In this document: positions 20,592 through 20,766 of the stretch, piece by piece
Numbering within the stretch: the stretch's first letter is position 1
Layout of the letters: every line of letters begins with the position of its first letter
Assembly: GCA_944360025.1 (NCBI GenBank)
Contig: CALVTF010000003.1
Coordinates: forward strand, 1-32,790
DNA length: 32,790 nt
DNA from: an uncultured Clostridia bacterium
GTDB lineage: Bacteria > Bacillota > Clostridia > Christensenellales > UBA1242
Direction of reading: 5' to 3'
The notes under the pieces: model-generated
What the model was told of the DNA's origin: nothing
Databases searched by the model: none
Seen by the model: the letters and a program-made list of their open reading frames with translations, nothing else
Position numbers and translations under genes: made by a program

Positions 20592-20766
20592 CAAAACATA
20601 AGTTTTGTTCTTCACACAGGCGAATGCGAGTTCTTCACAGTGTCCGTGCCACTTCTTAATACGAAACACAGTTTCGCTCTTCACAACAACGACAGTTGCT
20701 TCTTCACAGTAGCTTCGCCACTTCTTCACGACGACTTAGTCGTCTCTTCACATTGCCTTTGGCAAC
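20592..20766 (-). repeat. Array of 7 short conserved motifs (GTGAAGA) alternating with 8 sequence-variable hairpins; candidate structured ncRNA or ssDNA element
   Basis: TCTTCAC on + strand at 20609, 20632, 20654 (degenerate TCTTAAT), 20678, 20701, 20723, 20745; intervening 15-17 nt segments are self-complementary. Confidence 0.9.

Follow-up and report, generated by a model that had tools for sequence, protein, structure and literature searches.

What is the row of eight small hairpins that begins directly behind the engB gene in this Clostridia genome: a repeat that has spread as DNA, an RNA structure under selection, or both? The stretch of DNA analysed here, called the window, comprises 32,790 nucleotides (nt) of contig CALVTF010000003.1 (assembly GCA_944360025.1; Clostridia, Christensenellales, UBA1242) and belongs to a genome of 0.99 Mb that is about 80% complete (G000). 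In the element in question, palindromes of variable sequence alternate with a constant heptamer tag, GTGAAGA. Our preferred answer, to which we assign a probability of roughly one half, is that the array is a mosaic repeat of tagged stem-loops resembling repetitive extragenic palindromes (REPs) and bacterial interspersed mosaic elements (BIMEs), most probably a 3' structure on the engB transcript, and that it evolves by exchange at its linkers. The REP/BIME-like part of this answer is drawn from mixed orientation, sporadic distribution, very high copy numbers in Akkermansia, a mosaic order of units and rapid gain and loss of units, while a selected role at the mRNA 3' end is drawn from starts at stop codons, co-orientation within the genus, arrays kept at orthologous sites of three species and a further array behind an ssb-like gene. 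The two readings are compatible; REPs are DNA repeats that act via the RNA of the gene they follow.

The array is real and far from chance. An earlier note, made from the letters of the window alone, had described its coordinates, linkers, 22-24-nt periods and eight-unit anatomy, and these proved exact when the minus strand was read again. The features are as follows.

20766-20592, minus strand: the whole array, in which seven linkers of 7 nt (six GTGAAGA, one ATTAAGA) alternate with eight palindromic units of 15-17 nt
20766-20752, 20744-20730, 20722-20708 and 20700-20685, minus strand: units 1-4, each from its first base as read on this strand
20677-20661, 20653-20639, 20631-20616 and 20608-20592, minus strand: units 5-8, given in the same way
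20751-45, 20729-23, 20707-01, 20684-78, 20638-32 and 20615-09, minus strand: the GTGAAGA linkers
20660-54, minus strand: the ATTAAGA linker
20678..20744, minus strand: units 2-4 with their linkers, 67 nt, missing from the orthologous arrays of two related genomes (G089 and G096) and of a metagenome strain
20616..20631, minus strand: unit 7 (ACTCGC...), weakly paired, its sequence kept in every complete family copy of G000, G089 and G096
20583..20591, minus strand: a G/T-rich motif, CGTTGTGGC, with which the array closes at its 3' end
20570..20582, minus strand: a T-rich stretch behind the array, which did not score as an intrinsic terminator

The first base of the array is the base directly after the engB stop codon TGA (20769-20767, minus strand). 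The loops of units 1-8 read AAA, TAA, GAA, TGTC, TGT, ACG, ATTC and TTAT, and all eight are closed by a C-G pair, as had been noted. With G.T pairs allowed, six of the eight units have at least five contiguous end pairs (6, 6, 6, 6, 7, 4, 2 and 6 pairs for units 1-8), compared with a mean of 0.47 of eight units and a maximum of 4 in 2000 unit shuffles. Two of the units had been called degenerate, which they are, and one of these, the ACTCGC unit, is nonetheless conserved in sequence between copies. Paired GTGAAGA words at a spacing of 14-18 nt occur four times in the window and not once in 100 shuffles of it, and the heptamer itself is found 15 times against 3.9 +/- 1.95 in shuffled sequence (largest 11). 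A de novo scan of G000 for runs of at least three perfect hairpins with identical linkers ranked the window array first, with five hairpins in a row; the scan gave seven matches in all, against four in a shuffled genome. None of the 38 rows returned by Tandem Repeats Finder overlapped the array. The overall folding energy of the minus strand is not exceptional (-58.8 kcal/mol, z -1.56, with 13 of 200 shuffles equally good), and the plus strand gave a z of -2.20.

G000 carries at least five further copies or fragments of the array, making six intergenic loci with the one in the window. The earlier note had held that a lack of homologous arrays, covariation and transcription would leave a decayed minisatellite; homologous arrays exist both in G000, where they are listed below, and in its relatives.

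C22 4194-4310, plus strand: copy after a sigma-factor gene
C22 5488-5370, minus strand: inverted copy, about 1 kb from the first C22 copy
C22 about 5266-5330, plus strand: fragment after a second sigma gene
C26 7771-7650, minus strand: copy between obg and yhbY
C35 4094-4050, minus strand: two-unit fragment, antisense to both neighbours
C85 about 323-398 (locus L378), minus strand: apart from these copies, an array of another kind with an unrelated linker, made of four hairpins with 5-bp stems and 3-nt loops at a period of 21

Units inside one GTGAAGA array differ from each other, homologous units return in a similar order from copy to copy, and the G000 arrays have a G/T-rich 3' end in common; most arrays of the genus end in a motif related to ...GTTGTGG.... 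Both orientations are present, two of the six copies being antisense or without an upstream gene. The inverted duplicate of the sigma array (C22 4174-5520) also takes in roughly 15 nt from the end of the upstream gene and roughly 45 nt of flanking sequence downstream, and both C22 copies converge on the second sigma-factor gene, as a segmental inverted duplication or a feature of the assembly. The different array on C85 has a constant 8-nt linker that reads TTTCTGAT/TTTCTAAT in the direction of the gene it follows. That gene, an open reading frame (ORF) at 399-824, resembles ssb (C-terminal DDDSLPF tail) and is preceded by an rpsF-like gene, both names having been given by eye.

Relatives of the organism show how quickly such arrays change. 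In the genus, 154 genomes were scanned for two tags at hairpin spacing and hairpin arrays were judged by reading the matched strings; the two-tag pattern was found in 44 genomes and hairpin arrays in seven (G000, G089, G096, G068, G113, G118 and G120). The exact threefold pattern had no match in 60 relatives (36 of the same genus, 24 of the same order), and of 401 genomes sampled across the order, only G000 and G363 had hairpin arrays built on three exact tags. Orthologues of engB were identified in all 41 genus genomes searched, and the array was missing from all 20 engB-downstream regions inspected in other species of the genus, including G030, whose EngB is 88% identical. By alignment, G089 and G096 have an orthologous engB array of five units with nearly identical flanks. 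The surplus of G000 amounts to 67 bases, units 2-4, which resemble units of other G000 arrays, and the stem of unit 5 shows a compensatory A-T to G-C change between G089/G096 and G000. Loose ends of X5, a DNA run from chicken gut, lie at 20654 and 20743 and continue into the array's short form. Variation in unit number between strains and species, a check that the earlier note had proposed, was therefore observed, with eight units in G000, five in G089 and G096 and a short form in the metagenome strain. In addition, the obg array is common to G000 and G096.

The arrays of G113, G118, G120 and G068 use the tag AGTGAAGR with 7-bp stems and end in ...TTGTGG-like sequence; bare heptamers are mixed into them, and they are often preceded by a terminator-like hairpin. 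Bare tandem runs of the heptamer, or of an octamer with an extra A, were also observed in intergenic, hairpin-free form in Clostridia records of metagenome-assembled genomes (MAGs; L013, L023, L028 and L050), in Akkermansiaceae (L048) and in the genus genomes G097, G106, G120 and G137, the L013 run adjoining a tRNA gene with its terminator. Arrays in which bare heptamers mix with hairpin units exist as well. An Rfam scan of ten array loci of the genus yielded nothing relevant.

The bare and mixed arrays of the genus and of other gut bacteria, the rapid gain and loss of units and the unexceptional overall folding energy would all suit an array that was a functionless, minisatellite-like by-product in which the heptamer slips and the palindromes are kept by snap-back or template switching without selection. 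We hold this explanation to be highly improbable, because the polarity of the arrays is defined and their 3' end motif is conserved, the same units stand at orthologous sites in three species with a compensatory change among them, the same tag is found in two phyla, and the retention of functionless sequence in a streamlined 1-Mb genome would be unexpected. The palindromes themselves are a property of the family as a whole, as 72 of 111 distinct inter-tag spacers form hairpins, compared with 13.2 +/- 3.6 (maximum 24) after shuffling.

The second phylum is that of Akkermansia. A scan of species-representative genomes gave, among the matches listed, at least 11 loci in Akkermansia/Akkermansiaceae MAGs at which GC-rich hairpins are parted by GTGAAGA. 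The three-tag pattern had 131 matches in G065, 31 in G066 and 11 in G067, with none for a reversed control, and copy number reaches about 65 arrays per genome. In G065 the array is a conserved repeat of five hairpins and about 120 nt, sometimes in tandem, and several compensatory double stem changes are seen among the Akkermansia copies. At least 11 G065 contigs have the array inside their first 300 bases, and the arrays explain contig breaks in Akkermansia assemblies; the idea that the 5' end faces outward at these contig ends was dropped because both orientations are present. The ORFs flanking 12 resolved Akkermansia arrays are likewise mixed, with three arrays co-oriented with both neighbours, three antisense to both, four at convergent and two at divergent pairs. 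Akkermansia also has arrays built with other linkers, namely AGTGATATT, GCGAAATC and GTTATAT, and its GTGAAGA arrays have REP-like motifs beside them. A gathering-level Rfam scan of eight Akkermansia loci returned tRNA only.

The wider pattern scans covered, among the matches listed, at least 120 genome stretches and at least 112 viral stretches, most of which were coding repeats or bare microsatellites, and 13 of the 238 listed rows with at least two tags passed the hairpin filter. The sole viral pass among these (L172) was rejected as a different thing, the tag there forming part of the stem, and no counterpart of the array was found by blastn in the phage and plasmid collections. A unit very similar to the ACTCGC unit lies inside a GTGAAGA array of Akkermansia (L044). 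As a sign of cross-phylum homology the ACTCGC unit was rejected, the pattern CTCGC-N3-5-GCTCG being only weakly enriched over its reversed control (154/110, 72/64 and 130/48).

One published family shares this architecture. Gut-1 (Rfam RF01706) was rated a likely non-coding RNA and was drawn from human-gut sequence only, and the table and passages cited here give no function (Weinberg et al. 2010, PMC2864571). Like the window array, it consists, by its Rfam consensus, of short hairpins of variable sequence with a constant purine-rich GUGAA-type linker, and it comes from gut bacteria and has no known function; unlike the window array, it is modelled as three hairpins, and its linker in Akkermansia members is AGTGATATT instead of GTGAAGA. 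The gathering threshold of the family is 50 bits, against which an Akkermansia GTGAAGA array scores 17.6 bits, a weak match. Searching window positions 20350-20850 with the Gut-1 model gave no match at E <= 10, and G000 and four relatives had no match over the threshold and none at array loci, the best in G000 being 16.6 bits elsewhere in the genome. Formal membership of the window array was therefore rejected on the covariance-model threshold, the architecture being shared. The earlier note had named a match to a described Rfam family as a way to overturn its proposal; a family of the same architecture does exist, and the array falls below its threshold and has no Rfam match. True Gut-1 members (at least 50 bits) are present in the Akkermansia genomes that carry GTGAAGA arrays, 15 in G065 and one in G066. 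At loci L372, L373 and L375, Akkermansia Gut-1 is multi-copy, occurs in tandem runs and inverted pairs and is often at contig ends. Our literature search for later functional studies of Gut-1 found none, mentions being limited to the 2010 paper and one structure-prediction paper of 2026, and no published description of GTGAAGA arrays was found in the literature on the heptamer, Akkermansia hairpins or REPs, Gut-1 or Akkermansia small RNAs (sRNAs).

The closest parallel in behaviour is provided by REPs and BIMEs, which the earlier note had set aside. That dismissal does not hold at the level of the genome, since the copies are intergenic, lie in both orientations, are sporadically distributed and mosaic, and reach high numbers in Akkermansia. 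Like REPs and BIMEs, the arrays are short extragenic palindromes with a constant tag at one end, assembled into mosaics with constant linkers; the palindromic units are extragenic and multi-copy, lie in both orientations and often just after genes, show compensatory stem changes and vary in copy number between lineages. Classical REPs, as presented in a section of PMC3733652, are 20-40 nt long, conserved in sequence within a genome and marked by a GTAG or CGTC tag. Formal membership in the GTAG/CGTC families was ruled out, as the tag differs, and the units inside the window array all stand in direct orientation, unlike those of BIMEs.

Several observations weigh against the reading of the array as a REP/BIME-like repeat on the engB transcript, and are gathered here. 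The window units are shorter than REPs (15-17 nt) and diverge in sequence within the array, and their tag is the heptamer GTGAAGA in place of GTAG or CGTC. The starts of the arrays also bear on the question: four of the six G000 loci begin 0-9 nt past the stop codon of a gene that runs in their own direction, and the array on C85 begins at the stop codon of its ssb-like ORF. A selected RNA role would account for the starts and co-orientation of these arrays no worse than a selfish repeat would. In runs X17 and X18 no RNA-library read or contig lies over 20409-20745, which takes in the body of the array, a gap that is uninformative either way because contigs break at repeats. The remaining points concern the enzyme. 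The defining features of REPs include a cognate REP-associated tyrosine transposase (RAYT) gene in the genome, usually flanked by the repeats, whereas G000, at about 80% completeness, has no intact Y1/RAYT gene, its sole PF01797 match being a broken IS200 remnant of about 60 codons whose hairpins are unrelated to those of the array. PF01797 matches were found in 17 of the 154 genus genomes, and four of the seven that bear arrays had none. In Akkermansia, a GTGAAGA array lies within 1.5 kb of only one of seven Y1 matches, and one further match has an array with a different linker about 250-400 nt upstream. Finally, no target-site duplication or cleanly bordered empty/filled site was found at the loci compared.

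A RAYT for G000 was accordingly rejected as far as tested. The remnant (C21 10069-10254, locus L241) consists of about the first 60 codons of an IS200-type gene followed by unrelated sequence, and it is apparently at the same site in G000, G089 and G096. G089 also has an intact, ordinary IS200 elsewhere, G000 and G096 having the broken fragment only.

These results bear on the proposal that the array is an active, non-autonomous mobile element, single-stranded DNA moved by an HUH/Y1 (RAYT-type) transposase that would recognise tag and hairpin, as is thought for REPs and REPINs. Part of the case for it comes from Akkermansia. Genomes there with many arrays have two to three Y1_Tnp matches each, and the five best matches are intact (75-78 bits, open frames of 148-207 aa), look like RAYT-type genes and have repeats of their own in their flanks. 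A GGCTCGC-type motif lies within 90 nt of nine of 12 arrays in four G065 stretches, against an overall density of 0.38 per kb, and also flanks one Y1-transposase gene; this link between array and Y1 gene is no more than suggestive. At L306 (G065 C31), a 148-aa Y1-transposase gene sits between direct copies of an approximately 150-nt composite repeat that ends in a GCTCGC...GCTCGC word, and a similar word stands beside most G065 GTGAAGA arrays. Inverted array pairs and the sporadic distribution would also suit such an element. In the Clostridia the picture is different: G000 lacks an intact Y1 gene, the copy in G089 is an ordinary IS200, four of the seven array-bearing genomes lack a PF01797 match, target duplications were not seen, and the engB and obg arrays are vertically inherited among G000, G089 and G096. 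We therefore regard present-day mobility of this kind as quite improbable.

Whether the structure acts as RNA or DNA was addressed through the base pairs. The earlier note had counted four G.T wobbles that pair only on the minus strand and had argued from them for a fixed polarity and selection on a single strand. The four wobbles are present, and the window array alone has no A.C. The argument built on them does not survive in the family, as 72 distinct hairpin units hold 412 Watson-Crick pairs, seven G.T, eight A.C and four others (pairs were counted by script, the unit register being 6+3+6 in the Firmicute arrays and 5+4+5+1 in Akkermansia). With G.T no commoner than A.C, the palindromes are equally good on both strands and give no sign of an RNA-specific tolerance of wobbles.

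The neighbourhood of the array in the window is as follows.

20767..21345, minus strand: engB, ORF for a ysxC-type ribosome-assembly GTPase (Pfam MMR_HSR1, 1.3e-22), its stop codon abutting the first hairpin
17766..20393, minus strand: ppdK, ORF for pyruvate phosphate dikinase, the next gene downstream (Pfam PPDK_N, PEP-utilizers and PEP-utilizers_C)
20430..20459, minus strand: promoter-like site before ppdK, 10 of 12 consensus positions

No terminator-like site was scored in 20350-20900. A gathering-level Rfam scan of the window left the array without a match, its sole matches being a SAM riboswitch (27969-28053, minus strand, 53.7 bits) and a tRNA gene (24165-24236, plus strand), both elsewhere, and a permissive scan of the array region gave matches at chance level only. 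Parts of the stretch are present in RNA libraries of three runs. Contigs from X17 and X18 cover ppdK up to 20402-20408, and those from X17 alone cover engB down to 20746; one RNA-library contig of 151 nt extends from engB 21 nt into the array and may be DNA carry-over.

That contig is one of the points in favour of a dedicated structured RNA, either a Gut-1-like non-coding RNA or one derived from the 3' untranslated region, whose hairpins would serve only to present six to eight single-stranded GUGAAGA sites to a protein in trans, as a sponge or scaffold, or which would be cut into hairpin units. The constant linker, found in two phyla and also as bare, hairpin-free heptamers beside stems that vary, looks like the selected part of the array. 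The starts at stop codons, the mostly shared orientation with the upstream gene within the genus, the compensatory stem changes and the rating that the authors of Gut-1 gave their family, in the passage of PMC2864571 concerned with it, point the same way. On the other side stand the lack of G.T enrichment over A.C, the two orientations within G000 and the mixed flank orientations of the 12 Akkermansia arrays, and up to about 65 arrays per Akkermansia genome, as well as arrays at contig ends, are unlike an sRNA gene. G030, the closest engB relative outside the subclade, is without the array, the arrays of G113, G118 and G120 come after an intrinsic-terminator-like hairpin, and no candidate binding protein was found. 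A dedicated RNA is rather unlikely in our estimate, yet a serious rival.

The tag could also be read as double-stranded DNA, a tandem array of heptads to which a repressor or partition-type protein would bind, the palindromes acting as spacers. Ribbon-helix-helix proteins that bind heptads are known, bare heptad runs exist, and the 22-24-bp period is close to two helical turns. Such a site array would leave the variable palindromes without a role even though their structure is conserved, no regulator or partition gene adjoins any G000 copy, and the arrays follow stop codons and do not lie in promoters. We give this possibility very little credence.

Other systems in which constant and variable parts alternate, or in which short sites are repeated, were ruled out by their defining features. 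CsrB/RsmZ RNAs resemble the array in displaying many repeated short sites on a multi-hairpin RNA, but these sites are GGA in the loops, whereas the constant word of the window lies between the hairpins and none of the eight loops has GGA. CRISPR arrays and ToxI-like type III toxin-antitoxin repeats share the constant/variable alternation in a non-coding array. CRISPR repeats measure roughly 23-50 nt and alternate with unique spacers of about their own length, compared with a constant part of 7 nt in the window array, where the variable parts are 15-17-nt palindromes. ToxI repeats are of about 36 nt and stand upstream of a toxin endoribonuclease, in contrast to the 22-24-nt period found here upstream of ppdK. 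No toxin or cas gene lies beside the array, whose neighbours are engB and ppdK, and with no intact Y1 gene found either, the statement that no cognate partner is evident nearby was borne out.

Returning to the REP/BIME-like repeat carried on the engB transcript, the following course of events would account for the array. It would be transcribed as the 3' untranslated end of engB, where the row of stem-loops, beginning at the stop codon, may hold back 3' exonucleases in cis or insulate engB from ppdK, as has been described for REPs. Arrays would grow, shrink and swap units by recombination or slippage between identical linkers. The family may first have spread by means of an enzyme or process that reads the tag together with any hairpin on single-stranded nucleic acid, an agent that would no longer be identifiable in G000.

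A broader grouping is possible, although we put it forward as doubtful. The GTGAAGA arrays, Gut-1 and the arrays with other linkers (AGTGATATT, GCGAAATC, GTTATAT, and TTTCTGAT behind the ssb-like gene) may all belong to a single superfamily of arrays of tagged stem-loops in gut Verrucomicrobia and Clostridia, built or used by a factor that reads the tag and the shape of the hairpin, not its sequence. That two phyla have exactly the same tag, and that sister families including Gut-1 exist, suggests such a factor, which could be an array-forming or mobilising enzyme or a multivalent RNA-binding protein.

For Gut-1, until now an orphan, these findings provide a genomic home, as in Akkermansia it is a high-copy dispersed repeat and one of several sister families that differ mainly in their linkers. 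A tag shared exactly by Akkermansia and small chicken-gut Clostridia suggests either a recognising factor in common or a transfer from one phylum to another and, if the factor were found, its rule of recognition, a short tag plus any hairpin, would be distinct from that of REPs and RAYTs. For the organism itself, several housekeeping genes of a streamlined genome have their 3' ends marked by the arrays, which may set the stability of the mRNA 3' ends there.

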